This document shows positions 23,038-52,507 of a DNA stretch of 64,000 bases, piece after piece. The DNA is from a virus. The stretch covers positions 1 to 64,000 of the IMG/VR virus record IMGVR_UViG_3300007522_000367; one strand, 5' to 3'. The position numbers were made by a program, and so were the translations under genes. Within the stretch, counting starts at the first letter, position 1. Each line of letters begins with the position of its first letter. Below the pieces are notes generated by a model, which saw nothing but the letters and a program-made list of their open reading frames with translations, was not told the origin of the DNA and made no database searches.

Positions 23038-23463
23038 ATGATAATATTAAAACAAGAAATTACAGAACACAATAGAAATGCTACTTCAGTAGACGATTTT
23101 TATTATAGAGGAACTGAATTTGAGCACAGCGGTGGCACAGGTATCCGTTCATTAGCTATGCAGTATCTTCGAGACAGGAAAATTATAGATAGAAGACTTA
23201 TCTTAAAGAACAATGGCAATACCCTAGAAATTACAACTATGTTCGTAAACAAACAGTATTACTTAGAATTTTTACAAGATGATTTACAAAAAGAAGCAAT
23301 GCAATTTTTTACACAGCGTCAATGGGAAACAAAGACTGAAACTTACGAGGCACAAGACGAACTTAGTATACTAGCAAATGCACATAGAAACATTATTGAT
23401 AGTTTTAAAAATATGTCTTTAGAACAAATAGTAGAACGAATTAAACAACTACAAGGCAAATAA
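23038..23463 (+). CDS. Hypothetical protein
   Basis: 141 aa ORF; TAAGTA 5 nt upstream; no SD. Confidence 0.65.
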   Translation: MIILKQEITEHNRNATSVDDFYYRGTEFEHSGGTGIRSLAMQYLRDRKIIDRRLILKNNGNTLEITTMFVNKQYYLEFLQDDLQKEAMQFFTQRQWETKTETYEAQDELSILANAHRNIIDSFKNMSLEQIVERIKQLQGK

Positions 23464-23464
23464 A

Positions 23465-24211
23465 ATGAATAAATTTCTTATAACTGGTATACCGCGAAGT
23501 GGAACAACTATAATTGTCAAGACATTAGCTAAATTAAATGATGTCGAAGTATACAATGACCAGGATGGTTTTGGAGAACCGTTTAAAATAGTTAACAAAA
23601 AATTAGATTTAAATCCATATTTACGTCTAACAGCAGTTGAAGATAAATGTAATTCAAAATATTTTGGATTTAAATGTTTCCCCGGCGACTTATTAGATAT
23701 TAATCAATTAAATGAACAACGTAATTATAAAACATTTGCAATTATAAGAAAAGATATTTGGAAGGCTTTATTCAGTTATTGTGTTGCTAAAACAAAATTT
23801 GTCAGAGATAGTACAGACATATTTAAACATAGTTCAACATTACACACACAGCGTCCTTTACAAATTTATATCGATGACTGGCAAAGTCCACTAAATCAAA
23901 TGATAAGACATTCTTATTTTTGGAGAGTAAAATCGTGTTATGAATTTGAAACACAGTGGAAAAATACAGATATAATTTATTTTGAAGATTTAATCAAACC
24001 AAATGCAAGCTTCGAGTGTTTAAATGAGTACTTTGGACAAGAAATAATTTTCAATTTAGATTACGACGATAGTCATGACACCGAGTCGTATTACGCTAAC
24101 TTTAGTCCAGAAGTTTTATCTAAATTGTCTAAACATATGTTAAGTACGATAGTTCTTCCATATGACTGTCCTGACTATATTAAACAGTCTATATATAAAT
24201 TTATAAAATAA
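23465..24211 (+). CDS. Sulfotransferase-like protein (Stf0/NodH-like)
   Basis: PAPS-binding ITGIPRSGTT, FGFK, IIRKD...S, IYFEDL. Confidence 0.75.
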   Translation: MNKFLITGIPRSGTTIIVKTLAKLNDVEVYNDQDGFGEPFKIVNKKLDLNPYLRLTAVEDKCNSKYFGFKCFPGDLLDINQLNEQRNYKTFAIIRKDIWKALFSYCVAKTKFVRDSTDIFKHSSTLHTQRPLQIYIDDWQSPLNQMIRHSYFWRVKSCYEFETQWKNTDIIYFEDLIKPNASFECLNEYFGQEIIFNLDYDDSHDTESYYANFSPEVLSKLSKHMLSTIVLPYDCPDYIKQSIYKFIK

Positions 24212-24214
24212 TAC

Positions 24215-24243
24215 TTGACAATATATTGCAGATCAAGTATAAT
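24215..24243 (+). promoter_or_regulatory. Consensus sigma70-type promoter for panD (leaderless geometry)
   Basis: TTGACA-17 nt-TATAAT; ATG lies 7 nt after the -10 box. Confidence 0.75.
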
Positions 24244-24249
24244 AAATGT

Positions 24250-24600
24250 ATGAAAGAATACATACACGGTAAAATACATAATATAAGCGTAACTGCTAAA
24301 TCAATTAACTATCATGGTAGCGTAACTGTTTGCTCGTATCTGTTAGAACAAGCAGGTATAGACCACTATCAAAAAGTAGATATTGTAAATCTACATAATG
24401 GACTTAGATGGACTACATATACTGTCCCAGGTCCTTTAGGATCATTTGAACTAAATGGTGGTGGCGCTAGGTTAGGTGAAATTGGCGATAAATGTGTAGT
24501 TATCGCATACGAGATGAAAGAGCAATTCGTTGGTTCAAAGGTAATTTTTTGTACTACCTACAACGGAGTAGAAGAAGTTATTGACTACCCTTTGCTTTAA
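24250..24600 (+). CDS. panD: Aspartate 1-decarboxylase (pyruvoyl enzyme)
   Basis: KIH...YHG|SVT self-cleavage site, NGLRWTTY, LNGGGAR, GD. Confidence 0.9.
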   Translation: MKEYIHGKIHNISVTAKSINYHGSVTVCSYLLEQAGIDHYQKVDIVNLHNGLRWTTYTVPGPLGSFELNGGGARLGEIGDKCVVIAYEMKEQFVGSKVIFCTTYNGVEEVIDYPLL

Positions 24601-25336
24601 TAAACGGTAAAAAGATTACACTAGGGTCAAATTCGTTTTTTGAAGCAAAACTATAATTGCTAGGAGTGTTGTGATGATTATTATGTAATGCTTGTCCCCA
24701 TGTAAGCAATCCTAATAGTTTAAGATTATAAGAATTATCTGTAGTTTCATGACTTCTATAACCAAACCACCCACTGTGGCAACTAATATTAACAATTGCT
24801 TCTTGATGGAAACTCCATGCTGCTGGTACTATCCAAAACCATAAAGTAAAGGTAGGAACAGTTAACAGTCCTACTACTAATACGCTCCAAATAATAAAAA
24901 TATAATATTTGTTTAAGAATAGATGAAATGAATTTTTATATATGTCTTTGACATGTCTAGGATTTATGTTATCTATACTTTTAGAATGAAGCCATCCAAT
25001 GTACGCATGAAACAATCCGTCTTTGGGACTATGCGGATCGCCCTTAGCGTCTGCATGTTTGTGATGCATGCCTCTATGAACACCCGCCCACCATATTGGT
25101 GTTCCTTGAGCACATAATGTTGCTAATACTAATAAAGGTTTTTCTAACCAAGGTTTTAGTTCTATTGATTTGTGAGATACGTACCTATGTAATATAGTTG
25201 CGGATCCTAATCCGCAAAATGTAATCCATCCTAGTAGTAAGTAAATCCAGTTAATTTCTGTAAAAAATATTGCAAATAGTGCAACTAACTGCACGACATA
25301 AAATACAAAAAATAAACTACTATTTTTCTTTGACAT
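24578..25336 (-). CDS. Membrane fatty-acid desaturase (delta-9-like)
   Basis: His boxes HRYVSH, HRGMHH, HNNHH; DPHSP; TM segments. Confidence 0.9.
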   Translation of the reverse strand: MSKKNSSLFFVFYVVQLVALFAIFFTEINWIYLLLGWITFCGLGSATILHRYVSHKSIELKPWLEKPLLVLATLCAQGTPIWWAGVHRGMHHKHADAKGDPHSPKDGLFHAYIGWLHSKSIDNINPRHVKDIYKNSFHLFLNKYYIFIIWSVLVVGLLTVPTFTLWFWIVPAAWSFHQEAIVNISCHSGWFGYRSHETTDNSYNLKLLGLLTWGQALHNNHHNTPSNYSFASKNEFDPSVIFLPFIKAKGSQ

Positions 25337-26163
25337 TAGTATCCACCTTCGTTGTCTTTGATGTGTTGTAAAAACGGAACAACGTCAAATTGTTCAGTCA
25401 TTCTTCCTCTTATAGAATTAGTGTCTTCGTCGAACCCGTCAGACACTCCGTTCCAATTAGTTAAATTTATTCTAAATCCTTTATGCTTTATAGCATAACT
25501 ATATTGGTTATCTTCTAAAGTTCTAATATTTTCAATTTTTAATTTTTCACAAACTAAGTTCTTAAGTTCTGTAAATTTATAAGTATCGTTGGTCATGTAC
25601 CGACCAACCTGTCCAATGTTCCTATATTCTATACTTGTACCAGACTTTACATTTCTCTCTTTTAAATAATTAAATATTTTTTCTATTAGATGTTCGTTAA
25701 GACCTTTAACAATAATACAACCAATTGACAATCTTAAATTTAGATCAATTACATTATTAAGTGCTTTCATTTTTCCTTTAGCACATTTAGCAAGATCAGT
25801 TATTTCATATACACTGTCTTCGTCAAACCCAGTCATACTTAAATAAACAGTTTTTAATCCTGCATCTTTTAATAGATTTAGATATGCTTTGCTTGCTATT
25901 TTTAATCCGTTTGTCGCAATACTAGTACGATGTCCTTTTTCAACAGCATAAGCAATAATTTTATCCAAGTCGGGATGAAGTGTAGGTTCACCGCCTATAA
26001 ATCTAAATTCAGTTGGATAATCAAATTTATCAATAAAGGAAAACATTTTTTCTTTATCTATATCTGGATAAAGTCTATTGGGAAGATAACAGTTAGCACA
26101 TTCCATATTACATCTATGAACAATATCGCAGTATACTGATCTATATTTTAAATTAGTTATCAA
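25336..26163 (-). CDS. Radical SAM enzyme (MoaA-like core)
   Basis: CNMECANC, GGEPT, ATNG. Confidence 0.88.
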   Translation of the reverse strand: MITNLKYRSVYCDIVHRCNMECANCYLPNRLYPDIDKEKMFSFIDKFDYPTEFRFIGGEPTLHPDLDKIIAYAVEKGHRTSIATNGLKIASKAYLNLLKDAGLKTVYLSMTGFDEDSVYEITDLAKCAKGKMKALNNVIDLNLRLSIGCIIVKGLNEHLIEKIFNYLKERNVKSGTSIEYRNIGQVGRYMTNDTYKFTELKNLVCEKLKIENIRTLEDNQYSYAIKHKGFRINLTNWNGVSDGFDEDTNSIRGRMTEQFDVVPFLQHIKDNEGGY

Positions 26164-26309
26164 TTTGCACCTTTAATAATTTAACTGATCTTTATCATCA
26201 TATCTTAGTTCTGGAATTTCAAAAAAAGTTTCCATAGGATCATTATACGCCTTTTTGATTATATGTTATGATAAGTATTTAGTAATCATGAAAAGAGGTG
26301 TTAGCAGTT

Positions 26310-27554
26310 ATGAAACAAAAAATACTAGTTCCGAATCAAGGCATGCCTAATCAATTTTTTTTAAAAAGTTGTAGAGATCGCGGCATAGAATTAGATATTA
26401 TTGTTGATTTAAGTTACGTGCTCCTTACTGACGATGTGTTAAAACACGAACAAGTACTAGGTAATAAAATTGTTTTAAATGAAAAATTAAACAAACTTGT
26501 TATAACAGATAAAATTAAAGAACACTATCAAGACACACAGTTAGATTATATCTACCCTAGTTGGTTTGATTTTCGAATTATGGCTATGGCGCACATAAAC
26601 GAAAAACTAAACATACCGGGACTAGGCCTTGATGCTGCGTTAAAGATTTTTGACAAATTAACGTATCAAACTATTCTAGAAAAAGAAGGAATAACGCTAC
26701 CTAAAATTATTTCATGCTTAGATCCATATAGTGAGCAATATTTTTACAACAATGCCGTGTTTCCTCTAATTGCCAAACCAGTAAAAGGTACAGGTAGTTT
26801 AGGTGTAAAAGTATTACAAAGTACTAAAGAAGCAACTGACTTTTTTAAAGATTACGATACTCCGTTTAACTCTTTTTGCGAGAAAGGACAAACCGGATAC
26901 AAGCACTACGACTATCATTGTTTAGGTAGTTGCTATATACTACAGGAATATATAGACGGTGATCTAGTGAGCGTGTCAGGGCATGTAATAAACAACAAAG
27001 TAAATGTAGACCTAGTTTATGATATAAAAAGTTCAGAGCTTCCGTATCGAGCGGAAATAGGATTTACGTATCCAAGCAAACACAATAAAGAAAAATTAAC
27101 TACTATTATTAAAAAAATAATAAAAACGTTGGAGATAGATAACAGTCCCTTTATGATGGATTTTATTTACAAAGATACTACATTTTATTTGATAGACTTT
27201 TCTGCGAGGTTTAGTACTAGTACACAATATATTATGAACTATTTAGGCGAAAAAGATTATGCGTTTAACGTTGTAAATAAAATTTTAAACAATGTAGATT
27301 TTGATATTGATTTGCAAAACTGTATCAGTATAAGACACTTGCCTATTGAAAAAGGTAAAATCAAGTATATTAACATAGATACTACCGAATGTGTAACAGC
27401 ACAGTTGCCAAAAACGGGATCCCAGCACTATAGTTCAAGGATAGATGCTTACGCAGGAAACAAAGGATTTATAGTTGCAGAATCTAACGACTTATTGTCT
27501 TTAGAAGAAAAAGTTAATAGGATACTAAAAACATTGGAGGTAGAGTATGTTTAA
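26310..27554 (+). CDS. ATP-grasp ligase (L-amino-acid ligase-like)
   Basis: DKL...IAKPVKGTGSLGV, ILQEYIDG, FYLIDFSARF; C-terminal LAL-like domain. Confidence 0.85.
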   Translation: MKQKILVPNQGMPNQFFLKSCRDRGIELDIIVDLSYVLLTDDVLKHEQVLGNKIVLNEKLNKLVITDKIKEHYQDTQLDYIYPSWFDFRIMAMAHINEKLNIPGLGLDAALKIFDKLTYQTILEKEGITLPKIISCLDPYSEQYFYNNAVFPLIAKPVKGTGSLGVKVLQSTKEATDFFKDYDTPFNSFCEKGQTGYKHYDYHCLGSCYILQEYIDGDLVSVSGHVINNKVNVDLVYDIKSSELPYRAEIGFTYPSKHNKEKLTTIIKKIIKTLEIDNSPFMMDFIYKDTTFYLIDFSARFSTSTQYIMNYLGEKDYAFNVVNKILNNVDFDIDLQNCISIRHLPIEKGKIKYINIDTTECVTAQLPKTGSQHYSSRIDAYAGNKGFIVAESNDLLSLEEKVNRILKTLEVEYV

Positions 27555-28116
27555 GTTAAAAGTGTTAGACAAGTCGCATTTACTCGACATATTAAAATTA
27601 AACAACGATAGTAAAAAAGTGTATGGTAGTACTAAAACTTCCTTGTACAATCGCGAATACGAAAACTGGATAATCGAAATTCTAAATTTTAATAATAAAG
27701 AGTCTGAGATACTAGGAATATTTAATGAAGGAAACGAATTAATACAGTATGCGTTATATTATCACATAAGTACATGGCCTGCTGTTGTAGTAGACCATTG
27801 GCGTAGCTCAACTGCTCACAAACATAAAGGTGTATTAGCAGCAACAGAATGGACTAAAATGTTTGCTGAATACATAGCAAAAAAAGACATATTTGTTTGG
27901 TACATTGTTGTTGAAAAAGATATGTGGGATAGATACACTACGCTACAAAAAGATCGATTCAACAAAGAACCTCCAAATTATAGATTTTTATTAGAAGAAG
28001 TTCCGGCAGGTGAAAGAAGCAAGTTTTTATCGTTTAATACATACTTATTAAAAAATCAAACATATGATAAAGCCATGTATGTATTTCAAATGGTAAATAA
28101 AGATAAATATTACTAG
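27547..28116 (+). CDS. Hypothetical protein, possibly GNAT-like fold
   Basis: LKVLDKSHLLDI...ILGIF..GNELI pattern resembles a GNAT N-terminus; GGAGG SD. Confidence 0.45.
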   Translation: MFKLKVLDKSHLLDILKLNNDSKKVYGSTKTSLYNREYENWIIEILNFNNKESEILGIFNEGNELIQYALYYHISTWPAVVVDHWRSSTAHKHKGVLAATEWTKMFAEYIAKKDIFVWYIVVEKDMWDRYTTLQKDRFNKEPPNYRFLLEEVPAGERSKFLSFNTYLLKNQTYDKAMYVFQMVNKDKYY

Positions 28117-28125
28117 GAGATAATT

Positions 28126-28536
28126 ATGCAAAAACATACTATAAAAGTTGAAATACCGACAACAGTAACTACCCACTTACAATGTCAGATCGCAGTATTA
28201 GACATGCTAGGCGAACAAGGCGGTAAAGACTTCACTAATCTTATTATTAAATATAAACACAATGGAGATATTTGGTTCTATAACTTAGATATCCAAGCCG
28301 AAGGTGATCAAAAATTTATGTATGCAACACGAGTCTTTGATTCAGCAAAAGCTAAAGAATCCTTTGTCACCGAAGCTGCTGAGTATTTTAGCGGTATTGG
28401 TGCAACAGTAGTAAGTGACGAAGCAATAACGTTCGAAGCGTTTGCCGCATATGCTGCTGACAAAAATGAATCTATAGGTATTCCGGCTAAGTTTGCGCCG
28501 CCTGGTACGGAGCCACATCCAGAGGAATTGGAGTAA
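28126..28536 (+). CDS. Hypothetical protein
   Basis: Strong AGGAG SD; 136 aa. Confidence 0.7.
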   Translation: MQKHTIKVEIPTTVTTHLQCQIAVLDMLGEQGGKDFTNLIIKYKHNGDIWFYNLDIQAEGDQKFMYATRVFDSAKAKESFVTEAAEYFSGIGATVVSDEAITFEAFAAYAADKNESIGIPAKFAPPGTEPHPEELE

Positions 28537-29236
28537 GAACAATATAGTTGGGCCTAGTAGGCTGTGTGATTGCGTTATTTGTTTTATTATAACAAACGAA
28601 TAATACATTCCTATCTACTTCACTAGTATTACGCCCGCTGTAGTGCAATGTATTTGCATGCATACATATTACGTCTCCTGCCTTGCCAGTCAACTGTATC
28701 GCACTACAATTAGTCTTAGACACCATATCGTCGTCAAGTATTCCTTGCGATTCATCAGCACTATGCTTTATGGTCCACTTAGAGTCGTTAATTTTTGGTA
28801 CCGGTAAGTTTTGACTTTTTTCTAAAACAGTTAACGGACCATTGTTTTTTGTCATATCATCAAGTAAAAACAATACGCTGATAGCATCAGGATTGTTCAT
28901 TCCATCAAAATTTTTCCAATATGTGTAGTCACTATGCCAAGCATATTCGCCGCCAGTTTGTGCTTTTTTATAATTAATATGACATTGGTGAATGTATATG
29001 TCTTGTCCTAATATTTCTTTAACAAAATCAATTACATTGTTATTATAGATAAACTCATTTATTGTCTTGCTCTTCCAATGCGGCGCAAATAAACTTCTAA
29101 TTGTATTGTTGTCTTCTATAATGTAAGTTTCATCTAATGGTTCGTTTTCTAAACGGATAGCTTCTTTTTTTAATTCCGTTGCATCAAATACCTCTTTCAA
29201 AATTAAATATCCGGTTTGTAAATATCCGTTGATCAT
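28487..29236 (-). CDS. Fe(II)/2-oxoglutarate dioxygenase, PhyH/ectoine-hydroxylase family
   Basis: YIHQCHINYK, WHSDYTYW, NGPL, GDVICMHANTLHYS..N...R. Confidence 0.88.
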   Translation of the reverse strand: MINGYLQTGYLILKEVFDATELKKEAIRLENEPLDETYIIEDNNTIRSLFAPHWKSKTINEFIYNNNVIDFVKEILGQDIYIHQCHINYKKAQTGGEYAWHSDYTYWKNFDGMNNPDAISVLFLLDDMTKNNGPLTVLEKSQNLPVPKINDSKWTIKHSADESQGILDDDMVSKTNCSAIQLTGKAGDVICMHANTLHYSGRNTSEVDRNVLFVCYNKTNNAITQPTRPNYIVLTPIPLDVAPYQAAQT

Positions 29237-30099
29237 TTTTCTACCTCTAATAGTTTTGTTAATTTGTGTGCTTCTAATGTAAAGACACCATTATGATATT
29301 TTTTCAAGTCATCAAATTTTTTAAGAACTTCATTCATTAACGGTGTTTTCTCAATTTCTTCCCATCCTGTATATTTTGGACGATCATTAAATGTATAATG
29401 TTTTGAATATATTATAGGCTTACTAGTTCGTGTACTTAGCTTGCCCGGGTGCTTATTGGCTATAAGTTCCCGCACTCTAGGCTCTTGTAAAAAGCTCAAT
29501 GTCATTTCAGGAGTGTATCTTAAAAAATCTGGAGTACCGTCTATGCTTTCATTAGCATACCATTTCATGTAGCTATTTACTCGTTCAGTTTCTTCATACG
29601 TCCATATTGAATCAAAGTTTTTAAGGTAAGGCTCGCCATTTGCCATAACAATAGTCCCATCTAATTGTAAAATTCCATACATGATGCTAGGTATTTGGTA
29701 TGCGCAACACTTTACACTATTAGCAATGTCGAATATTTTTTTAGAACTTATAAATTTTTCAATATCAACATTAACTACTATAGGTGTAATATTGTGTAAT
29801 TTACAATAATCAAACGCAAATGCAGTATCGTGTGCGTTATAATGTCCGTAACTTATTATGGCAGTCTTAAAAGGAACTTTTGCTGTCTTAAAAACATTTA
29901 ACATAAATTCACTGTCAAGTCCTCCACTAAACATTAATGTTATAGGAGAAGACGAATTTTCATAGAGTATTTGAGCTGCAAAAACAGCTTCGTCATGAAA
30001 GTTTTTTATATCACTACGGGTACATTTTTTAATGTTTACTGACCAACTATCACCTGTTCCGCTAGTTGTAAAATAATCATTATACGTTGTTGCTGTCAT
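29233..30099 (-). CDS. PP-loop (adenine nucleotide alpha-hydrolase) ATPase, asparagine-synthetase-like synthetase domain
   Basis: LMFSGGLDSE; K..IY......RPKYTGWE. Confidence 0.65.
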   Translation of the reverse strand: MTATTYNDYFTTSGTGDSWSVNIKKCTRSDIKNFHDEAVFAAQILYENSSSPITLMFSGGLDSEFMLNVFKTAKVPFKTAIISYGHYNAHDTAFAFDYCKLHNITPIVVNVDIEKFISSKKIFDIANSVKCCAYQIPSIMYGILQLDGTIVMANGEPYLKNFDSIWTYEETERVNSYMKWYANESIDGTPDFLRYTPEMTLSFLQEPRVRELIANKHPGKLSTRTSKPIIYSKHYTFNDRPKYTGWEEIEKTPLMNEVLKKFDDLKKYHNGVFTLEAHKLTKLLEVEK

Positions 30100-30119
30100 A
30101 CTTACCTCATAAATACGTT

Positions 30120-30791
30120 ATGAATCATTTTAAACCTATCAATTTTGATTTTGACCAAGAACAAATCTATAACGATCTTGTAAACATGGATATCTTTGAT
30201 AAAAGTTTTCTTGCTACAGTTATTTACAACAATGGTCGTAGCAAGTACGACCAAGATGGCTTTTTTAACGAGTACAACGACGTTGTACACTATAACGAAA
30301 ATAAAGAAATAGTTAACGGAAAATTTAATACATTTGTGACTTATAACTTTACACACTTACCCGGAATTGAAGAAACTAACAACAATAGTTTTATAGATAC
30401 TCCTGAAGGAAGACGGCCTATATGGCAAGTGTATGATACAGCATGGGAGTGGAAAAAGGATACTCCAAAATCACTTAAGGCTGTAGTAGAACAATTAAAT
30501 TTAAAATATATAAGCTGTGTGAGATTAGTAGGACAAACTCCTCCTAGTAAAGGAATTGTACATGTAGATTCAGGAATAAAAGATAATTTAAAATATTATC
30601 GAAACGGAGGTGTAAGTATTACACTAAACGTATCTGACGGAGGAGGTAATTTACAATTTAAGTCTCCTGGAGGATTAGAAACTGTAGACGAAAGTAAACA
30701 TAAAGCATGGCACTTTAATGATGCGTTGCCGCACTGTACAACTGAAATTACTAGTCCTAGAATACAAGTAAGAGTGTTTGGAAAACAATGA
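30120..30791 (+). CDS. DSBH Fe(II)/2OG oxygenase-like protein
   Basis: VHVD...ITLN...FNDALPH...RIQV; ATAAATA 4 nt upstream of the ATG. Confidence 0.65.
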   Translation: MNHFKPINFDFDQEQIYNDLVNMDIFDKSFLATVIYNNGRSKYDQDGFFNEYNDVVHYNENKEIVNGKFNTFVTYNFTHLPGIEETNNNSFIDTPEGRRPIWQVYDTAWEWKKDTPKSLKAVVEQLNLKYISCVRLVGQTPPSKGIVHVDSGIKDNLKYYRNGGVSITLNVSDGGGNLQFKSPGGLETVDESKHKAWHFNDALPHCTTEITSPRIQVRVFGKQ

Positions 30792-31402
30792 CAGTATTAT
30801 ACACACCTTTAGACTTACCTACACTAGACTTTAATAGAGAAGAATTTATAAAGTGGCACGAAGAAAAGCGTCATAAGAATAGAGATAATATCAATTACGA
30901 TAAAAAAAACTTCATTGCTCCGTGGCTAGTTAGCCTTGCATATCACGTCGACTACGGCTGGTGTAATAGATTTTTAAAAGTTATTCCTAATTTTCAAGAC
31001 ATACTGTATAATCATTTACCATATACTGATATTACATATGTTAACTTCTTAGAACAAAAGATTCCTTGTCAGTTACACCAAGATGTAGGATCAAGACCAG
31101 ATAGAGAAAACGAGCCAGGTGCGTATAAAGCATTTATAGTATATGATGCTCCGTTAATGTATTTTCAAGAAGGTAAAACTAAAGATACAATTAAAGAAGA
31201 AAAGTTATATATTAATCATCCAACTCACTTAACAAAGTGGTTTGCAATTAACAATTACGATGCATATCATGCAGCTGATTTACCGCAAGAAGGACAGCGT
31301 AAGATTATCATGACAATACTTGGTAAATTAGATAAAGAAAAACATGCAACTATACTGGAGCGCAGTTTATCCAAATACAAAGATTACATAATAGAAATTT
31401 AA
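30788..31402 (+). CDS. DSBH Fe(II)/2OG oxygenase-like protein
   Basis: LHQD...NNYDAYHAA...RKII. Confidence 0.6.
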   Translation: MTVLYTPLDLPTLDFNREEFIKWHEEKRHKNRDNINYDKKNFIAPWLVSLAYHVDYGWCNRFLKVIPNFQDILYNHLPYTDITYVNFLEQKIPCQLHQDVGSRPDRENEPGAYKAFIVYDAPLMYFQEGKTKDTIKEEKLYINHPTHLTKWFAINNYDAYHAADLPQEGQRKIIMTILGKLDKEKHATILERSLSKYKDYIIEI

Positions 31403-31968: not shown

Positions 31969-31976
31969 GAAAATAT

Positions 31977-34199: not shown

Positions 34200-34202
34200 A
34201 CT

Positions 34203-39307: not shown

Positions 39308-39313
39308 ATTTTT

Positions 39314-44062: not shown

Positions 44063-44070
44063 GTAAGTAC

Positions 44071-45138: not shown

Positions 45139-46081
45139 ATTTTATGTATTCTTCTATAGGAGGTTTTTTATGATTATTGCTATCTGGTATGCCAGCTTCG
45201 GCGTTATATACCGGGCAATGATATGTAAGAGCCTCAGATTTATAACCAATTCCTAAATATAATTGAGGATGTATTCCAATATCCTCGACCATGTCGTTAT
45301 CATTTTGTATACAAGCACAAAATCCAACAGCCAATCCAACAGCAGGAGCAGCAAGACTAACATACATTGCTGCAAGCCCTATTTCAACTCCTGCTTCATA
45401 GAGATAGTAATTTTTATCAACTCCGTCTTGCGGAGTTCCTCTAATGCCAAAGGCAAGAACATAAGGTGCAAGTACCTGAGGATTATATCTTGATTTTGGA
45501 TTACCCGGATCTGCTTCAGTGCCTTTATACATCTTTTGTTGTAACTCAGGCAGCGTATGTGTAGGAATAATACGCAAGTCATATCTAACTCGGCGTTGTT
45601 TACTTGGCACGTAGTTGTGTATACCTCTTACAATATCATCTATTAAATGCTGTTCAGGTATTTGATCTGTCCAATTATATGTATTGATTCTATTATTTGC
45701 GAGATATTCAAAAGACCCTAATTCATAAATTGGTTTATTTAAAATATTGTTTATTGTAATAGATACTAAGCTATCAACTTCAACAGACGGACAAATTTCG
45801 TTTATCAAAGTATTAATTATTTTATAAGTTTTTACTTCAACATCAGTTGTTCTTAACTGAGACTTTCCTCTGTTCCAAAATCTACTGGTAATATTCTGTG
45901 TTCTAGTAGTATTAGTATTTTCTAAATCATATATCCATGCATCATACACATAACCAATATCTCTATAGCACTTTTCAAATTCAGTAGTACGATTAGGATA
46001 AGATTTTTTAATCCATTCTACTGATTGCTCAATTATAGATTTTTTATTTTCTTTTAAAATTTTAATTATGTTCATTGTCAT
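45131..46081 (-). CDS. Nitroreductase-fold protein fused to an N-terminal helical KCxRDxGY domain
   Basis: RIN.Y.W...P...I...VPSKQ...EIGLAA...LAA...GLAVGFCAC; N-terminal EKCYRDIGYVYDAWIYDL. Confidence 0.6.
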   Translation of the reverse strand: MTMNIIKILKENKKSIIEQSVEWIKKSYPNRTTEFEKCYRDIGYVYDAWIYDLENTNTTRTQNITSRFWNRGKSQLRTTDVEVKTYKIINTLINEICPSVEVDSLVSITINNILNKPIYELGSFEYLANNRINTYNWTDQIPEQHLIDDIVRGIHNYVPSKQRRVRYDLRIIPTHTLPELQQKMYKGTEADPGNPKSRYNPQVLAPYVLAFGIRGTPQDGVDKNYYLYEAGVEIGLAAMYVSLAAPAVGLAVGFCACIQNDNDMVEDIGIHPQLYLGIGYKSEALTYHCPVYNAEAGIPDSNNHKKPPIEEYIKYV

Positions 46082-46299
46082 TCCAGTACTAACACTACAT
46101 CTTTGCCTGGACCTACTTTGCTAGGTAAGTCTCCATATTGCTCTACATACCATTTAATAACCGCGGTGTACCAATTTTGACTATTATGATGTGCTTGTTT
46201 ATTAAACTGATATATGTTATTGTTTGTAGCTTCCATAGTACTTATCGCACGGGCACTTTCGGTCTGGAGCTGTCTGAGTGTAAGATTACTTATATCCAA
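46078..46299 (-). CDS. Hypothetical protein
   Basis: 73 aa; overlaps both neighbours. Confidence 0.6.
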   Translation of the reverse strand: MDISNLTLRQLQTESARAISTMEATNNNIYQFNKQAHHNSQNWYTAVIKWYVEQYGDLPSKVGPGKDVVLVLE

Positions 46300-47047
46300 T
46301 TTTCATAAACCTAGTATAGTTGGAAAGAAATAATTCACCTTCAAATTTAACATCTGACATAGGAGCTGACTTACTAAATGTATCTAAGTCAGCACTACAA
46401 TTTATATGATCTTCTATTTCAAAGTAATTGTTGCTTTGTAATACTACTAATTTGCCATCCGGAATCTTTGAATACCATTCTTCGAAATTTTCTATGTGTT
46501 CGCAACTTGTGTTAATAATAGTATCAGGCGTATCAGCTAAAGGACACGTTGTTCCGTCAGCTCTAATTACTTCGTAGTTTTCGAACTCATAATTAATATC
46601 CATGATATCTTTTGTAGATGATTTAAATTGCCAGTTATCCTTAACCCACGGGTTATTAAATGTTTCAGCAATACTTCGGCAACTAGGATCAATGTCAAAA
46701 CTTCTAACTTTATTTACTTTAATGTTACTTTCAAATAACATTGTAGCAAGTGTAGCATACCATCCTGCACACAAGAATACTGTGCCTAAATCAACTTTAA
46801 GTTCACTAAGTTCTTTTACTAACCATAGTTTGCTTTCTAGTTGTCCTCGGCTAAAACAGTCTGCATTAAAACTGTCATCGTCCTTATACTTACGCATACC
46901 TTCAATTAATTGACTGCCTGTTAATCCTTGTATAATTCTAAACAATGCAAACTTATCTTGACTTAATAAGGTTTTTCTAAGATCACTAAAGATAGAGTTA
47001 TCCGGGTATAGTAATTCTAATCTATCTAGTATTTCAGCAATCTGCAT
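46286..47047 (-). CDS. Class I SAM-dependent methyltransferase-like protein
   Basis: GQLESKLWL, FLCAGWY, SFDIDP, IINTSCEH. Confidence 0.65.
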   Translation of the reverse strand: MQIAEILDRLELLYPDNSIFSDLRKTLLSQDKFALFRIIQGLTGSQLIEGMRKYKDDDSFNADCFSRGQLESKLWLVKELSELKVDLGTVFLCAGWYATLATMLFESNIKVNKVRSFDIDPSCRSIAETFNNPWVKDNWQFKSSTKDIMDINYEFENYEVIRADGTTCPLADTPDTIINTSCEHIENFEEWYSKIPDGKLVVLQSNNYFEIEDHINCSADLDTFSKSAPMSDVKFEGELFLSNYTRFMKIGYK

Positions 47048-47705
47048 TGTATTTCTCCTTAAGCCAGTTAAAGTCGTTTATCAACCCAAGATCAGCCCCG
47101 CTAGAAAGCCCGTACTTCCTGCCAGCACAAGCACCTTTAATAGCATATTCGCCGAAGGGAGCATCTCCTCCCACTGTTGTCCATATTTTGAGTCTTTCAT
47201 TTGTTTCTTCCTCGTTTTGTCTATCTATTATTTTACTTGCAAGTTTAGTACATTCTCTAAATGCACTACGCCATGTACTAAATTCATCTACATTAAATGC
47301 AGTGATATTACTAACTTGCTCCATAGGAATAAATTTAGTACTGATGCTTGTGGTCATATCTGGTTTACTAGTGTCCATGTGTAATGTTGCTATTCTAGGA
47401 AGCAATTTTACACCACCGTATCCGTATTCTAGATCATTAATAGGATTGCGGCTACGCCATACATGTACAGCATCTTTATTAGTTCGGTTTGGAACATAAG
47501 AAAAATCAAAGTCATCTACAATAAGTGCATCGGCGTCAACAATCCATACCATATAAGTAAATGCTTTTTTTGCTGCTTCAATATGTGCTTGATGTATTCC
47601 TTTAACTCCGTGAACACGCATAGCCCACGGCACTTGTGCTTTTAGGTTGTTCCAGTTTACATCAGCTTGGATTTCGTTATAACTTATAAAAATTACATCA
47701 TACAT
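47034..47705 (-). CDS. GT-A fold glycosyltransferase-like protein
   Basis: VIFISYNE...RVHGVKG...AH...IVDAD; WRSAFRE. Confidence 0.7.
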   Translation of the reverse strand: MYDVIFISYNEIQADVNWNNLKAQVPWAMRVHGVKGIHQAHIEAAKKAFTYMVWIVDADALIVDDFDFSYVPNRTNKDAVHVWRSRNPINDLEYGYGGVKLLPRIATLHMDTSKPDMTTSISTKFIPMEQVSNITAFNVDEFSTWRSAFRECTKLASKIIDRQNEEETNERLKIWTTVGGDAPFGEYAIKGACAGRKYGLSSGADLGLINDFNWLKEKYNADC

Positions 47706-49050
47706 TGCTGTTCTCACATAGCTTGTAAAATTCTTTGTACTCTGGAAATACTTCTAAAAAGTTTTTATTTCTACGACGATCGTACTCATTTACAAATTGC
47801 ACAAATCCAAATCTGTCTGCACTTACATTAATTTTCTTTTTGAAACGAGCAAGGCAATCGTTGTATATTCTTTCTAATTTAAAAATCTCATCCATTTTAA
47901 ATCGCTTGTTCTTTTTTCTTCGTTCGATCATAAAATCTATAGTAGTCTTTAGATATGTTTCAATCATTTCCTCAGTTGCAATTTTAATGTCAAGGAACTC
48001 TGGGTGCCTAACATATGCAAAATCCATAACTACTCGTTCGCCAAAGTCTCGTTTTAATTTTTCTATATGACAAACAAACTTGTGGATTGTGGGCAAACTT
48101 AAAATATTAAATGCACTCATAAAACAAACCTTAATATCAGTAGTTTGTTCCAAAAAGTATTTAATATTTGAATCAAATAATTTCCAATCCATTCCGTCTC
48201 TGCTGTATTCGGCTTGTCCTTTAACACTTTCTGCACTTGTATATAAACTAAATGATTTAATAGATTTTGAAACTTCTAATTCTTTTATAGAATTAACAAA
48301 TTCTTTCCATAATAATTTTGGAGGACATGCATTACTGTTTATAGCAAAATCTAAATTAGGCTGAGGATTGTTAATTAAATATTGAATAACCCGTTTAGTG
48401 TGTTTACTTAATAACGGTTCGCCGCCTGTAATTCTGAATACGTGCATATGCTGTACTGCTTCAGGAAACCATTTCCAGAATGCTTCAATATACGGATTTT
48501 CTTCTCTTTCAAGAATAGGAATTTCTGTTTCCTTAATACTATTATAATGGTTGTTTTTTAATATGTAAGCACCATTTGCTTTTATTTCATCAGTCCATTT
48601 GCTACTAAATGCCGGGCCGCAGTATGTACATTTAAAATTACAAACGTTTGAGAAACTAACTTCTACATATCTTGGATATATATTTTCGTCTCCTGTTGAC
48701 GTGATTATTTTCTTTTTATCAGTCTGGCTCCATGTTTCAGAACTTTTAGTAATTCTATCACTAAAGTTATTAGTATTATCTTCAATTCGCCAACAATAAT
48801 CACATTCGGCAGGACGCTTGCCTGCAAGCATTTCTTTTCTAATTTCTTTTTTAAAATTAGTGTTATGTAATGCACTCGGATTAACTGCAAGTTCATCTAA
48901 TGGAATTTTATGGGCACCTACATGATGACAACTATGTGTTATGCCAGATCCAAGATGCATAGTTACTTGTGTCCATTTAGCCAGGCAAAATCCACAGCCA
49001 ACAGCATCTAATTCTTTTTTAACTTGTGGTAAGGAATCTAAATTAATCAT
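47698..49050 (-). CDS. Radical SAM enzyme with N-terminal twitch/SPASM-like domain
   Basis: FCLAKW...SCHH...CDYC; CNFKCTYC; TGGEP. Confidence 0.9.
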   Translation of the reverse strand: MINLDSLPQVKKELDAVGCGFCLAKWTQVTMHLGSGITHSCHHVGAHKIPLDELAVNPSALHNTNFKKEIRKEMLAGKRPAECDYCWRIEDNTNNFSDRITKSSETWSQTDKKKIITSTGDENIYPRYVEVSFSNVCNFKCTYCGPAFSSKWTDEIKANGAYILKNNHYNSIKETEIPILEREENPYIEAFWKWFPEAVQHMHVFRITGGEPLLSKHTKRVIQYLINNPQPNLDFAINSNACPPKLLWKEFVNSIKELEVSKSIKSFSLYTSAESVKGQAEYSRDGMDWKLFDSNIKYFLEQTTDIKVCFMSAFNILSLPTIHKFVCHIEKLKRDFGERVVMDFAYVRHPEFLDIKIATEEMIETYLKTTIDFMIERRKKNKRFKMDEIFKLERIYNDCLARFKKKINVSADRFGFVQFVNEYDRRRNKNFLEVFPEYKEFYKLCENSNV

Positions 49051-49958
49051 TCTGGATCAATTACAAATTGTTGTGCAGGATTTCTACTAGGATTTTGATA
49101 TACTATTTTAAAGAATTTACTTTGTTGAGCACTTAATGGAGTTTCAGCAATTGGTATTTTTAACTCATTAATAAGTTTAATACCATACGTGTCTGTTTTG
49201 TGTTTAATATCTTCGATGCCTGCAAAGGAAGTAGTCCATAAGTCATTTAAATATTTAAAGTCTCTAACTTGAACAAAGTCCCAATCTGTACACATTGTCA
49301 TATACAGACCCGCTCTTGCTCCTAATATAGCCCAGTCACCGTTTTGTACATCTGCACCTATCATTAACCAAATCCAAAGTCGGTGTAAGTTTTTCCAATG
49401 ACCTTTTAATAACTGTTCTTTTGTAGGCTTTGCTCCTTGATCGAGTGCCATTTTAACACCTTCGCGGAATCCAGCACGCCATGCTTGTTGTGCTGTAGTG
49501 TTGTTATGTACATCAGAGTAACAACTATTTTGTTGAATGTACTGTAAGTCCCAACAGAAGTCTACTTGAGCTGCTATATTATCAGCATCTGCATTTTCGT
49601 GTGTACGCATGTTAAGAACATATTCTTTGGGCCAGCATTTGAGACCGCCGTTGCCGTACATCAATCCGTTAATTTCGTTTTTGCCACACCAACTAATAAC
49701 ACTAGATTCTAAATCACTGCCCTGCGGAATATCTAATATTTGTTCTAAAAAGCCAGGGCGTACAATATTGTCACCATCAACAGTAATAAAACGATCTGTT
49801 TCGCTTAATTCTGCACATGCTTTGTGTGCAGCATCTGAACCTTCTACACCGTGTACACGTTTTGCCCACGGTGCTTTAGTAAGCAAGTCAGCATAGTTTT
49901 TTTCTGCATTGGGTTCGTCATATGACAGATAGATAATATCGTAATCAATAATTCTCAT
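49047..49958 (-). CDS. GT-A fold glycosyltransferase-like protein (paralog of 47034-47705)
   Basis: IIYLSYDE...RVHGVEG...AH...TVDGD; AWRAGFRE. Confidence 0.7.
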   Translation of the reverse strand: MRIIDYDIIYLSYDEPNAEKNYADLLTKAPWAKRVHGVEGSDAAHKACAELSETDRFITVDGDNIVRPGFLEQILDIPQGSDLESSVISWCGKNEINGLMYGNGGLKCWPKEYVLNMRTHENADADNIAAQVDFCWDLQYIQQNSCYSDVHNNTTAQQAWRAGFREGVKMALDQGAKPTKEQLLKGHWKNLHRLWIWLMIGADVQNGDWAILGARAGLYMTMCTDWDFVQVRDFKYLNDLWTTSFAGIEDIKHKTDTYGIKLINELKIPIAETPLSAQQSKFFKIVYQNPSRNPAQQFVIDPE

Positions 49959-50516
49959 TTATTGCTCCTGTACATTATGTATGTGTTTTACATGATGCTC
50001 GCTACACAAAAGGCTTACACGCTGTTTACACACTTCTACATTATAATTTTTTAATGTAACCGTATCGCATAATGCAAGTGTTTTTAAATTAACTTGCAAT
50101 GTATCTAATAGTATAAATCGATTGCTAGGATCAACTACATAGTACTCCTTAATATAATTTTCTCCTTGTGCAAACATTGCACATACTATATCATCCATTG
50201 TACTTGTAGCTGTCCAAGTACAGTTAAACAAGTCTTGATTTAAAATAATTGCATTATGATCTATTACTTGCTTAACAATAATACCCCTAGACTGTGCTCG
50301 GTCTTCTGCCTTGTCAATGTGTTTGAGTACAATGTGTATCTTACCTTTTATTTTTGCATTTTCAATTACAATGTAATCTAATATTTGCTTGATGCCGTTT
50401 GAAAAGTCAGTATATGTTTGTAAATCAACTTCAATATAATATTCGCCAAAAGAATCGTCTGTTATATTAGCAACTGCTGTGATGTTACCGTCGTCGTTAT
50501 AATAAATGTAATACAT
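49959..50516 (-). CDS. Hypothetical protein
   Basis: GAGGAG SD; TAATG coupling. Confidence 0.65.
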   Translation of the reverse strand: MYYIYYNDDGNITAVANITDDSFGEYYIEVDLQTYTDFSNGIKQILDYIVIENAKIKGKIHIVLKHIDKAEDRAQSRGIIVKQVIDHNAIILNQDLFNCTWTATSTMDDIVCAMFAQGENYIKEYYVVDPSNRFILLDTLQVNLKTLALCDTVTLKNYNVEVCKQRVSLLCSEHHVKHIHNVQEQ

Positions 50517-51322
50517 TACACACGCTCCTCAAGCCATCCTAACATGTCTACTGTTAAAAATTCATCTTCAACATAATGCAATACGCCTGATTGTTTATAT
50601 CCACCTATATAAAGTGTATCATTGCCAAAATCTATAGGTAACACATCAGTCCATTTACTCGGTACATGACTCCAATTTTGTACTTGAGCTTTCATATGAG
50701 TAAATGTTAGATTATTATTAATTTTAGAGTCTAAAATCGTTAGTGCAACTGCGGCACTGAGATCTACACTATTCCAATTTTGCATGTCTTTAGGAGCATA
50801 TTGTTGATAAAATACTTTCCAGTTTGTCATTATTACATCTAATAATTTAAAAAAATTATGAGCTTCGTCGCATTTTGAAAATTTATACATGCCGGTGTAT
50901 ATATTAGGTAAATTGTTTGAATCAAATGTTTTTCTATAGTATCTATTAGTTACTAATTCGTTTCTATATGTAGTTACTTTATTTGTAAAAATAATAGGAT
51001 CAATATTTTCCCATATTGGAGTAATATTATCTAATATTAACATATCAGCATCAAATACTAGGGTATTTCTATAAGGAGTTAAATGGTAGATTTTCCAACG
51101 ATTATCTATTTTCCAATCAGAGTTTTTTGCTAAATCGCCCCAAGGTATAGAAATAACTTGATCAAATACATCTTTATATGCTGTTGGAATTACTTCATCA
51201 GTTATAATACTAATATTTGTGCCAGGTGCGGTTGCAAGAATACTTAATGCCAATGCATATGCTTGTTGTACATAATCTGTTTTACTATTATTTTGTGCAA
51301 GTACACATACACCATTACTCAT
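50516..51322 (-). CDS. GT-A (GT8-like) glycosyltransferase
   Basis: LALSI, TPY..TLVFDADML, FTHMK. Confidence 0.72.
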   Translation of the reverse strand: MSNGVCVLAQNNSKTDYVQQAYALALSILATAPGTNISIITDEVIPTAYKDVFDQVISIPWGDLAKNSDWKIDNRWKIYHLTPYRNTLVFDADMLILDNITPIWENIDPIIFTNKVTTYRNELVTNRYYRKTFDSNNLPNIYTGMYKFSKCDEAHNFFKLLDVIMTNWKVFYQQYAPKDMQNWNSVDLSAAVALTILDSKINNNLTFTHMKAQVQNWSHVPSKWTDVLPIDFGNDTLYIGGYKQSGVLHYVEDEFLTVDMLGWLEERV

Positions 51323-52163
51323 TTGCAAACTCCTTGTCAATAAACGAGTTTAAGCTAAACTTATTCATAATGTGAACAGTTGCATCTGTAAATTTTACTG
51401 GAAGATAATCATATGACTTATGTGCAAGTAATTTAATAACGTTATTATTAACATCTATTAAAATATCGTTATCCGTTGATACCCACATATCACTAGGTAA
51501 TTGTTTAGGCCACTCGGTGCTATTTTCAAATCCACGCATCATATGCATTGTAATACTGAATGCAAAATCGTTTCTAAATTTAGATTCAGTAATATCATAT
51601 ACTGTTCTATAATAATTGTAATTTTCTTTAATATGTTCTACTAAGTCAAATACTGTTTTTGCAGTATTGCTTTTTGTAAAATATAATATAGTAGCCCAAT
51701 ACATTGGAATAGTTTTATCACTTACTCTATCAAAACTTAGCTCTGTGCCTTGATTAACTAAATTGTAATGATTTGCAATCATAAAATCTTCATTAGTATC
51801 AAAACATGCTAGTAACTTATCATTTGATACAAATAAATCAGTATCAATTACAATTGTTTTATCAAATACGCTTAACTCGTATACACTATTGCGAGAAGAG
51901 TTTTTCCATTCTAATTTTTTACTTGCATATAATCCGTCATTAAATGTTTTAACAGAATTATTAATAGGTGCAGCAATGTGTGATACAACATCAATATAAT
52001 TTTTATAAAACGGGTATTCTGATTCAAGGTAATCAACTGTATCTGTAATCAGTTGTACAGGTAAGTTTAAATACTGTTTTACTCGCTTTGCACAATATAC
52101 TGCTTGCTTTACATAATCAATACTGCTGTTGTTAAATGCAAAAAGTACAACACCTTGCTTCAT
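51315..52163 (-). CDS. GT-A (GT8-like) glycosyltransferase (paralog of 50516-51322)
   Basis: TIVIDTD, FRNDFAFS, HIMNK. Confidence 0.72.
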   Translation of the reverse strand: MKQGVVLFAFNNSSIDYVKQAVYCAKRVKQYLNLPVQLITDTVDYLESEYPFYKNYIDVVSHIAAPINNSVKTFNDGLYASKKLEWKNSSRNSVYELSVFDKTIVIDTDLFVSNDKLLACFDTNEDFMIANHYNLVNQGTELSFDRVSDKTIPMYWATILYFTKSNTAKTVFDLVEHIKENYNYYRTVYDITESKFRNDFAFSITMHMMRGFENSTEWPKQLPSDMWVSTDNDILIDVNNNVIKLLAHKSYDYLPVKFTDATVHIMNKFSLNSFIDKEFANE

Positions 52164-52507
52164 AAATCAACCAATCCTTGTACTGATCTATTTTTTTTAA
52201 TTGTTTCGTAGTCAACGGCATATTTACGTGATGCAACTGCATAGACTCCTATTAGTTCTTTTGCAAATTCGTTAACATCAGGAATCATAAAAGGAATACT
52301 GTTATCATCTAGTACAACTGCACCATCTGGAATTGTTTTTGACAACGTATAGACAAAATTAATTAGTTCTTGTGTAACAGTAAACTTATGGCCGTGAATA
52401 TAATGCACAAGGTTTTCTTTATACTGTGCAAGAAAAATACGTTTTTGGTTGTTTTGCGTTGCTAAAAAATTAGAAAACTCTAATGCTTTACTTAATCTTT
52501 CGTCCAT
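52160..52507 (-). CDS. Hypothetical protein
   Basis: GAGGAG SD; first gene of the - strand modification operon. Confidence 0.7.
   Translation of the reverse strand: MDERLSKALEFSNFLATQNNQKRIFLAQYKENLVHYIHGHKFTVTQELINFVYTLSKTIPDGAVVLDDNSIPFMIPDVNEFAKELIGVYAVASRKYAVDYETIKKNRSVQGLVDL

Follow-up and report, generated by a model that had tools for sequence, protein, structure and literature searches.

Virus record IMGVR_UViG_3300007522_000367 of IMG/VR contains an island of approximately 29 kb that is densely packed with genes for modifying enzymes. The stretch analysed here, referred to as the window, consists of the first 64 kb (64,000 nucleotides) of this single 87,058-bp record, which has no terminal repeat, and the island extends from position 23038 to 52507 of the window. 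Genes are designated by the first of their coordinates. ORF-based gene calling gave 37 open reading frames (ORFs) in the island, in line with the approximately 37 genes of an initial annotation made from the sequence alone; this number includes a 73-amino-acid ORF (46078-46299) that lies below the 80-amino-acid threshold of the ORF listing. About 25 of the 37 genes encode tailoring-type enzymes, and the share of radical S-adenosylmethionine (SAM) enzymes is 8/37, an enrichment far removed from what a random draw of phage accessory genes would give. All eight radical SAM enzymes of the initial annotation were recognised by Pfam, as were the two desaturases, PanD, and the ATP-grasp protein. Of the four GT-A glycosyltransferases, 47034 and 49047 were likewise recovered by fold, and 50516 and 51315 as probable GT8-like proteins by profile; also recovered was the methyltransferase 46286, of which the model adopts the class I SAM-dependent fold (predicted local distance difference test (pLDDT) score 95). 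The proposed set of ten oxygenases was retained in part: 28487 (PhyH), 34203, and 36771 are supported by profiles, 36277 and 31399 gave weak matches, and the others share a motif only. The sulfotransferase, GNAT, PP-loop ATPase, and nitroreductase assignments drew weak matches at best. In agreement with the initial annotation, Pfam searches of the island proteins detected neither a non-ribosomal peptide synthetase or polyketide synthase (PKS) nor a replication gene. Approximately 20 island ORFs had no Pfam or PHROG match, PHROGs being silent for 20 island proteins, and Pfam searches at E<=1 with 21 unexplained island proteins gave weak matches only. A search of 50,697 phage records by megablast, with the island as query, returned no match.

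The right-hand part of the island, which contains a core module that recurs in other viruses and the fibre-proximal block, encodes the following features. Bit scores refer to the NCBIfam model NF033640 (N_Twi_rSAM, "twitch domain-containing radical SAM protein"), of which the members are referred to as N-twitch proteins.

38192-39307, minus strand, core radical SAM enzyme with a Cys-rich C-terminal tail, closing the cassette (Pfam, NCBIfam)
39308-39456, minus strand, deletion scar between 39457 and 38192 (blastn against L003)
39457-44062, minus strand, tandem array of three N-twitch paralogs with the orphan 41785-42663 interleaved
39457-40641, minus strand, N-twitch radical SAM enzyme (402.6 bits)
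40601-41788, minus strand, N-twitch radical SAM enzyme (300.3 bits)
41785-42663, minus strand, orphan HxD...H protein (H122, D124, and H266 invariant in 25 homologs; no Pfam or PDB match)
42647-44062, minus strand, N-twitch radical SAM enzyme (423.7 bits)
44071-45138, minus strand, core radical SAM enzyme with a SPASM-like Cys-rich C-terminal tail (Pfam, NCBIfam)
45131-46081, minus strand, nitroreductase-like protein, a lead only (atlas score of 0.89 to a cluster with PF00881 in 37% of its members)
46078-46299, minus strand, conserved 73-amino-acid ORF between 45131 and the methyltransferase, without Cys and of no known family (cluster cl5)
46286-47047, minus strand, core class I SAM-dependent methyltransferase (AlphaFold pLDDT 94.8, Foldseek probability 1.00)
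47034-47717, minus strand, core small soluble GT-A glycosyltransferase (AlphaFold pLDDT 92, Foldseek)
47698-49050, minus strand, fourth N-twitch radical SAM paralog (311.8 bits)
49047-49958, minus strand, GT-A glycosyltransferase (paralogy with 47034, GT-A family fold)
49959, minus strand, ORF without assigned family and with almost no counterparts in relatives
50516-51340, minus strand, GT8-like protein (family profile against glycogenin, E 1e-4)
51315-52163, minus strand, GT8-like protein (family profile against glycogenin, E 1e-4)
52160, minus strand, small protein of the fibre-proximal block (block end 52507)

A scan of IMG/VR with one N-twitch radical SAM protein yielded 178 stretches; the set retained for comparison comprised 80 loci. 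An ordered cassette, consisting of 47034 (GT-A), 46286 (methyltransferase), 44071 (radical SAM), 42647 (N-twitch), the array, and 38192 (radical SAM), corresponds to approximately 38.2-49.9 kb of the window; it was found on at least 80 viral contigs of up to 457 kb, with its order kept in dozens of them. Orthologs of 38192 were present in 53 viral and 39-50 bacterial loci, those of 44071 (cluster cl2) in 65 and 46, and those of the methyltransferase in 48 and 22, respectively. The orphan 41785, the nitroreductase-like 45131, and the 73-amino-acid ORF are common extras of the cassette. Members of the 45131 family were found in 16 viral loci and in no bacterial ones, and the 73-amino-acid ORF in 25 viral loci, where it is conserved over its full length and always lies beside the methyltransferase, as well as on 3 contigs of metagenome-assembled genomes (MAGs) that are probably misbinned; it was not found in the Bdellovibrionota loci holding the same enzymes (see below). 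Comparison of synteny across relatives, which the initial annotation had suggested, thus separated a conserved core from a variable left third. These data support the view that part of the island is a co-inherited and functionally linked enzyme set, rather than a collection of random auxiliary genes. The further claim that the entire island is a single assembly line is not supported: the left third and 49959 have almost no homologs, and the left third moreover has alternating strands and a lower GC content.

Four island proteins (39457, 40601, 42647, and 47698) belong to NF033640 as judged by the whole-protein hidden Markov model, with scores of 300-424 bits as compared to the curated cut-off of 170 bits, and no protein of 14 control genomes exceeded this cut-off. 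All four share the N-terminal four-Cys domain (C12, C31, C93, and C96) and the CxxxCxxC motif (C149/C153/C156) as invariant positions, and Pfam located the auxiliary SPASM domain (residues 17-88 and 12-97) ahead of the Radical_SAM domain. What distinguishes these phages is the expansion of the family into tandem arrays, which range from one to more than ten paralogs across relatives. Orthologs are 50-97% identical and paralogs 22-33%, which suggests distinct steps or roles for the paralogs rather than redundancy. The array is also subject to loss: upon alignment of positions 39150-39650 with locus L003 by blastn the flanks align and 1728 nucleotides of L003 are replaced by 135 nucleotides, and the approximately 1.7-kb segment missing from the window corresponds to one extra N-twitch gene. 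Since tblastn with an N-twitch protein against the phage records gave just three weak matches, no cultured phage appears to carry this family. Among the nearest NCBIfam and PDB matches of the radical SAM proteins are SkfB, PapB, anSME, and PqqE; the matches to viperin, MoaA, and QueE are weak and partial, those to viperin and MoaA covering the generic radical SAM core only. As a separate observation, an N-twitch homolog is interrupted by one in-frame TGA in two relatives (G001:C1:33266-34327 and G012:C1:223219-224286), which may reflect a pseudogene, a sequencing error, or recoding.

The two partner enzymes of the core were assigned on the basis of predicted structures. Foldseek related the 47034/49047 family model to PcManGT, WrtF, PBCV-1 A64R, and SunS (probability 1.00, E 3e-5 to 1e-4), which identifies a GT-A fold, and in 28 homologs the DxD motif is represented by a nearly invariant D61 and an invariant D63 in a VDAD stretch; neither Pfam nor PDB gave a sequence-level match for this family. 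The methyltransferase model gave more than 500 Foldseek matches at E<=1e-3, and the top ranks are all methyltransferases, including NodS, KijD1, and MtmC. PDB sequence searches with profiles of the GT-A, methyltransferase, and 41785 families yielded nothing meaningful. For the pair 50516/51315 the glycogenin (GT8) match extends over the N-terminal 110 residues, with D97-x-D99 aligned, and no Pfam match was obtained at E<=1.

The window belongs to a phage lineage of which eight further members were compared (G001, G004, G005, G013, G014, G015, G017, and L133). All nine share the same gene order, with the replication block followed by the island and then by 49047, the GT8-like pair, 52160, 52565, and the fibres, and in this lineage the region constitutes a hypervariable locus whose place is constant, with the replication block on one side and the tail-fibre genes on the other. 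The synteny of the fibre-proximal block (49047, 49959, 50516, 51315, and 52160; 49047-52507, minus strand) is kept in G001, G004, G005, and L133. The island varies in length from approximately 29 kb in the window to approximately 57 kb in G001, genes have been gained and lost between near-identical relatives, and fibre identity descends from 93% to approximately 30%, with core radical SAM orthologs at 70-97%. Beyond this lineage, the jumbo phages G002 (328 kb, complete), G003 (400 kb), and G011 (457 kb) carry 6-18 NF033640 matches per genome, distributed over several loci. In 16 viral loci a ClpP protease gene (Pfam E 9e-85; e.g., L064 333-935) was observed within 10 kb of the radical SAM cassette; the window island does not contain this gene.

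In a cellular search that included one genome per GTDB species, the best matches to 42647 (55-62% identity) were overwhelmingly from Bdellovibrionota and located on chromosome-scale contigs. Homologs of 38192, 44071, 46286, and 47034/49047 are encoded at most a few kb away from these genes, in an order rearranged relative to that of the phages. In the isolate Bdellovibrio sp. HCB2-146 (L105) the module is found among 5-6 GT2 genes, a GNAT gene, and genes for an FtsJ-like methyltransferase and a protein with 8 transmembrane (TM) segments, and it adjoins a gene for a 1355-amino-acid fibre-like protein with a C-terminal Peptidase_S74 (endosialidase chaperone) domain (L105 17278-21366). This adjacency was dropped as a general feature of Bdellovibrionota, as it was seen in only one of five genomes. 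Over all bacterial loci, GT2 genes represent 4.2% of the genes, and a NodU-type carbamoyltransferase, a B12-radical SAM enzyme, and a PP-loop ATPase are recurrent. The names that the Prokaryotic Genome Annotation Pipeline gives to the Bdellovibrio homologs ("radical SAM protein", "hypothetical", "twitch domain-containing") are uninformative. In a phylogeny of the 42647 orthogroup that has the 39457 paralogs as outgroup, all 55 viral sequences form one clade that is nested within Bdellovibrionota and is sister to marine Bacteriovoracaceae and Halobacteriovoraceae (88-93 in the Shimodaira-Hasegawa-like approximate likelihood ratio test). This nesting points to transfer from bacteria to phages, subject to the sampling of the sequences and to the length of the outgroup branch. 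Four MAG contigs assigned to other bacteria (L081, L082, L107, and L133/L152; Arcticimaribacter, Neisseriaceae, Rickettsiales MED657, and Gammaproteobacteria MED685) carry a phage-type cassette as well; they are probably misbinned phage DNA, because all fall inside the viral clade, and fibre homologs are present on the L133 contig.

Leftward of the core, the island consists of cassettes that differ between relatives.

23038-31402, variable left part, short cassettes in alternating orientation (Pfam, locus mapping)
23038, no assigned family
23465, sulfotransferase-like protein, weak (Pfam E 0.037 and a GIPRSGTT motif)
24226, PanD (Pfam)
24578, FA_desaturase (Pfam)
25336-26163, radical SAM enzyme (Pfam)
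26298, ATP-grasp protein (Pfam)
27547 and 28126, no assigned family
28487, PhyH (Pfam E 2.4e-25)
29233, PP-loop ATPase-like protein, weak (E 0.008-0.014)
30087 and 30788, HxD...H motif only
31399-38301, minus strand, semi-variable tailoring block (Pfam, hhalign)
31399, minus strand, cupin-like protein, weak (hhalign 26%)
31977-33446, minus strand, B12-like radical SAM enzyme (Pfam)
33447, minus strand, FA_desaturase (Pfam)
34203, minus strand, Asp/Arg-hydroxylase-like protein (hhalign 96% to Pfam-verified Asp_Arg_Hydrox clusters)
35051, minus strand, GNAT protein, weak (21.4 bits)
35696 and 37498, minus strand, oxygenase motif only
36277, minus strand, hydroxylase, weak (Pfam E 0.005)
36771, minus strand, hydroxylase-like protein (hhalign 97-98% to Pfam-verified Asp_Arg_Hydrox clusters)

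The genes in 23038-31402, like 49959, have almost no homologs among 156 related loci, no viral relative of the ATP-grasp protein was found, and the GC content of the left part is 0.31-0.34, as compared to 0.37-0.41 in the flanks. Homologs of the 31399-38301 block occur mainly in near kin (L002, L003, and L053), and the block is partly shared with others. No profile similarity to a known oxygenase family was obtained for 30087, 30788, 35696, 37498, and 41785. Membrane functions are scarce throughout the island: TM segments are absent from all of its proteins except the two desaturases, which are its only polytopic membrane proteins, and no initiating transferase, transporter (including ABC transporters), exporter, flippase, polymerase/ligase, RiPP recognition element (RRE; RiPP, ribosomally synthesised and post-translationally modified peptide) or PqqD domain, or protease was detected among them. 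In the viral loci at large, just 2 of 1602 proteins have at least six TM-like segments.

Both flanks of the island encode virion proteins, as the initial annotation had stated, the left-hand fibre gene being recognised by Pfam and the right-hand tail genes by PHROG matches and paralogy.

21669-22973, plus strand, left-flank fibre gene with an Mtd_N N-terminal domain (Pfam PF18454, E 2.9e-11)
52565-59043, minus strand, right flank, T/G-rich 301-amino-acid protein (52565) and three fibre paralogs (53500-59043) with a common N-terminal domain (PHROG tail-fibre matches, paralogy)

The Mtd_N fibre protein (T 13.4%, G 12.2%) has no Cys, and the virion proteins in general are nearly free of this residue. 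Promoters were sought as matches to consensus sequences. The T4 late promoter TATAAATA appears not to be used here, since it is depleted in the window (2 sites versus 11.6 expected), and generic promoter and terminator scans performed no better than shuffles. The motif ATAAATA lies 31-37 nucleotides upstream of 16908, the Mtd_N fibre gene (37 nucleotides before its start), 52565 and 53500 (31-33 nucleotides), and 74526, at window positions 16872, 21632, 53503, and 55042 and contig position 78076, and is a candidate late promoter of fibre and structural genes. At this spacing it precedes none of the genes inside the island. The late-promoter motifs that the initial annotation had placed before several island genes were not reproduced: ATAAATA is confined to flanking genes, and island genes 38192 (39342-39314) and 52160 (52558-52530) are preceded by a sigma70-like TTGACA-N17-TATAAT/TATACT sequence. 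The same consensus precedes the replication genes 15181 (at 15126) and 18863 (at 18804), and TTGACA-N17-TATAAT is kept before the 38192 orthologs in L007, L016, L037, and L053. Judged from the sequence, and on account of these sigma70-like promoters, the two long leftward operons of the island look early or middle rather than late. Contigs from marine metatranscriptome RNA libraries match relatives of many island genes at 85-99%; carry-over of DNA is possible, so that these matches are no proof of expression.

The gene families, folds, synteny, paralog expansion, and Bdellovibrionota link are established by the analysis, and the substrate class, the order of steps, and the acceptor are inferred. 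The reading that is put forward, tentatively and with somewhat less than even confidence, is a cytoplasmic pathway that tailors a glycoconjugate, in which an unusual sugar or short glycan would be built by radical chemistry and methylation and then transferred. The cytoplasmic substrate of the core enzymes would be an intermediate of the sugar or nucleotide-sugar type, successive radical SAM paralogs (radical C-H chemistry) together with methylation would generate the unusual sugar or short glycan, and the GT-A and GT8 enzymes would transfer the product to its acceptor. Strain-specific decorations (hydroxyl, acyl, aminoacyl, or sulfate groups) could then be added by the swappable cassettes, i.e., Fe/2-oxoglutarate-type hydroxylases, desaturase-like di-iron enzymes, GNAT, PP-loop ATPase, PanD with ATP-grasp, the sulfotransferase-like protein, and the GT8-like pair. 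A glycan pathway fits best because of the obligate partnership of radical SAM enzymes, GT-A, and methyltransferase, the GT8 pair that is kept with the fibres, and the glycosyltransferase-rich neighbourhoods in bacteria. It is further supported by the co-localisation of the five core families in Bdellovibrionota chromosomes, by the solubility of the island proteins other than the desaturases, and by the sugar and Nod-factor methyltransferases among the fold matches of 46286. Of the two candidate acceptors, a virion protein (the fibres) has a slight edge over a precursor of the host envelope, because of the fibre linkage and the protein-glycosylating enzymes among the fold matches; the envelope precursor is in turn favoured by the early-type promoters, the lipid-type enzymes, and the published interpretation of a pelagimyophage island (PMC7029224).

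Several observations weigh against a glycoconjugate pathway. The island contains no detectable dehydratase, epimerase, aminotransferase, or nucleotidyltransferase of classical nucleotide-sugar synthesis, and classical GT2 genes occur in only 24 of the 76 bacterial loci. The literature yielded no functional study or characterised member of the N-twitch family (NF033640), and no substrate for the two other radical SAM groups (38192 and 44071). The left third, being almost without relatives, need not share the pathway of the core, and the promoter matches suggest that the island is expressed before the late structural genes. A distant N-twitch protein (29-32% identity) of Poseidonocella sedimentorum is encoded approximately 1.9 kb upstream of a 2317-amino-acid type I PKS (L153 9992-20174), and the family is thus not tied to glycan loci everywhere. 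Finally, the N-twitch genes of the distant jumbo phages are scattered and not located beside detected fibre homologs. The fibre linkage is therefore a property of the lineage rather than of the module, and the location of the island beside fibre genes, as initially annotated, holds for the nine lineage members and not for these phages. Proximity of N-twitch and fibre-like genes in G002 was considered as evidence of linkage and discarded, as it is within chance by a rough estimate.

Remodelling of the host envelope, in which island products would, during infection, alter the glycans or lipids of the host surface (O-antigen, lipid A, aminolipids, or glycolipids) and thereby block superinfection or change the membrane, is considered rather unlikely, despite the fact that this interpretation was published for the analogous pelagimyophage island, in which GT8 is dominant (PMC7029224). 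The early-type sigma70-like promoters at 38192 and 52160 would suit such a role, as would the lipid-type families (two FA_desaturase proteins, PhyH, and the LpxO/OlsC-type Asp_Arg_Hydrox-like proteins) and the location of the bacterial homologs in GT2-rich clusters with membrane proteins. It is countered by the strict fibre linkage within the lineage, by the lack of a detected initiating transferase, flippase, or polymerase, with the desaturases as sole polytopic membrane proteins, and by the core GT-A being small and soluble, unlike GtrB or ArnC. Alternatively, the island could serve to modify protein or peptide side chains, with crosslinking, epimerisation, hydroxylation, or methylation of virion proteins or a RiPP-like peptide and the glycosyltransferases as a minor add-on. 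SPASM/twitch radical SAM enzymes are best known as peptide maturases, proteins are the targets of Asp/Arg beta-hydroxylase-like enzymes, the nitroreductase-like 45131 and a conserved 73-amino-acid ORF lie inside the cassette, and the peptide S-glycosyltransferase SunS is among the GT-A Foldseek matches. The probability of this alternative is nevertheless judged to be small, as the searches of the island revealed no RRE/PqqD domain, no leader peptidase, and no exporter, the 73-amino-acid ORF is uniformly conserved, has no Cys, and is missing from the Bdellovibrionota loci with the same enzymes, and the near-absence of Cys in virion proteins argues against thioether crosslinks.

A comparably small probability is given to the absence of any unified pathway, where a fibre-side recombination hot spot would gather unrelated genes and only sub-modules, such as the radical SAM cassette or PanD with ATP-grasp, would cooperate. 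The left third, with its alternating strands, lower GC content, and near-lack of homologs, the gene gain and loss between near-identical relatives, the range of island sizes (approximately 29 kb here versus approximately 57 kb in G001), and the N-twitch genes at many loci in distant jumbo phages are all in keeping with such a hot spot. Opposed to this are the tailoring-type character of about 25 of the 37 genes and the synteny of the five-family core, which persists between deeply diverged loci and in phages and bacteria alike. Hypermodification of nucleotides or DNA, by extension of a 7-deazaguanine or other base-modification pathway with radical SAM, PP-loop, and glycosyltransferase enzymes, is very improbable. 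Points in its favour are the QueC-like PP-loop ATPase of the island, of which the like is repeatedly found next to radical SAM genes in relatives, and the weak partial matches to viperin, MoaA, and QueE; however, those to viperin and MoaA are limited to the generic core, and the homologous bacterial modules lie in GT2-rich clusters without DpdA or tRNA-guanine transglycosylase. The island PP-loop protein was also evaluated as a missing QueC and rejected, since only its SGGxDS region matches and the Cys cluster of QueC is absent. Returning to the glycoconjugate pathway, a bolder version of it holds that jumbo phages and predatory Bdellovibrionota share a radical SAM-driven decoration system, which the phages acquired from Bdellovibrionota and which puts a C-H-functionalised sugar on receptor-binding fibres. 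This is regarded as distinctly unlikely; if true, it would represent a new class of radical SAM chemistry and a new route to diversification or protection of adhesins.

Parts of the island resemble systems that are known from elsewhere. The GT-A of the A64R type of chlorovirus PBCV-1 represents virus-encoded virion glycosylation, and to our knowledge this system has no radical SAM enzymes. Like A64R, of which structures 2p6w and 2p72 are among the top Foldseek matches of 47034, the island enzyme is a small soluble viral GT-A, but the identity to A64R is 9-13% with a TM-score of approximately 0.35-0.39. With the RiPP maturases SkfB, PapB, and PqqE the island shares a radical SAM core with a predicted auxiliary Fe-S domain and a clustering of tailoring enzymes, whereas the auxiliary domain is N-terminal here, and searches for an RRE, a variable precursor, a protease, or an exporter were negative. 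Oligosaccharides such as Nod factors and O-antigens are tailored by enzyme sets that include NodS, NodU, NodH, and NodL. The likeness to these is one of repertoire only, and comprises the methyltransferase (NodS fold match), a carbamoyltransferase in related loci, the sulfotransferase-like protein, GNAT, and GT2/GT-A; in contrast, the island has no NodC-like synthase or acyltransferase set, and radical SAM enzymes dominate. Radical SAM enzymes are costly and oxygen-sensitive, and yet one family of them has 6-18 matches per jumbo-phage genome, always with glycosyltransferase and methyltransferase. No substrate is known for any of these enzymes, so that new chemistry is probably encoded in the cassette, for which the five-family core, the separation of core from variable genes, and the cultured carrier Bdellovibrio sp. 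HCB2-146, usable for genetics, provide handles.

The closest precedent is the "host recognition cluster" of pelagimyophages and cyanomyophages, which has a mean size of 34-45 kb, is non-syntenic, and lies beside the tail fibres (Zaragoza-Solas et al. 2020, PMC7029224). It contains glycosyltransferases, with GT8 prominent, lipopolysaccharide-type genes, and radical SAM cassettes that vary between close relatives, and is located between VrlC and gp14 in a T4-like backbone (PMC7029224); a T4-like marine genome with 12 radical SAM genes has been reported as well (PMC5332604). The initial annotation knew of no characterised phage pathway of this kind; the island type had in fact been described for these phages (PMC7029224), although no member of it has been characterised biochemically. 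The window likewise has a hypervariable fibre-side island with glycosyltransferases and radical SAM cassettes, but it is a fragment of a much larger phage, its island is located between the replication block and the fibres, and the five-family core, the N-twitch family, and the Bdellovibrionota link were not defined in that study (PMC7029224). New, as far as could be found, are the five-family core, the NF033640 membership, the assignment of two orphan partners from their structures, the fact that the module originated in Bdellovibrionota or is shared with them, and the promoter evidence. A product that decorates the fibres or the envelope of the host would be relevant to the host range of abundant aquatic phages and to superinfection by them, and would also explain the role of fibre-linked hypervariable islands in large marine myophages.

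The record is a fragment of the genome of a large uncultivated aquatic phage, because related records measure 236-457 kb and CheckV estimated the 87-kb relative G005 to be 24% complete. DNA that is near-identical to the window is present in metagenomes labelled "freshwater" and "salt lake", and Tara ocean data contain homologs of 41785. Replication functions in the left part of the window include a split DNA polymerase, an exonuclease, and an ATPase with 52% identity to its counterpart in jumbo phage PA5oct. The fibre paralogs are immediately followed by a 4944-amino-acid ORF on the minus strand (59689-74523), which continues past the end of the window; its PHROG matches are to baseplate-wedge and virion structural proteins, and it may correspond to the giant VrlC-type protein at the border of the pelagimyophage island.

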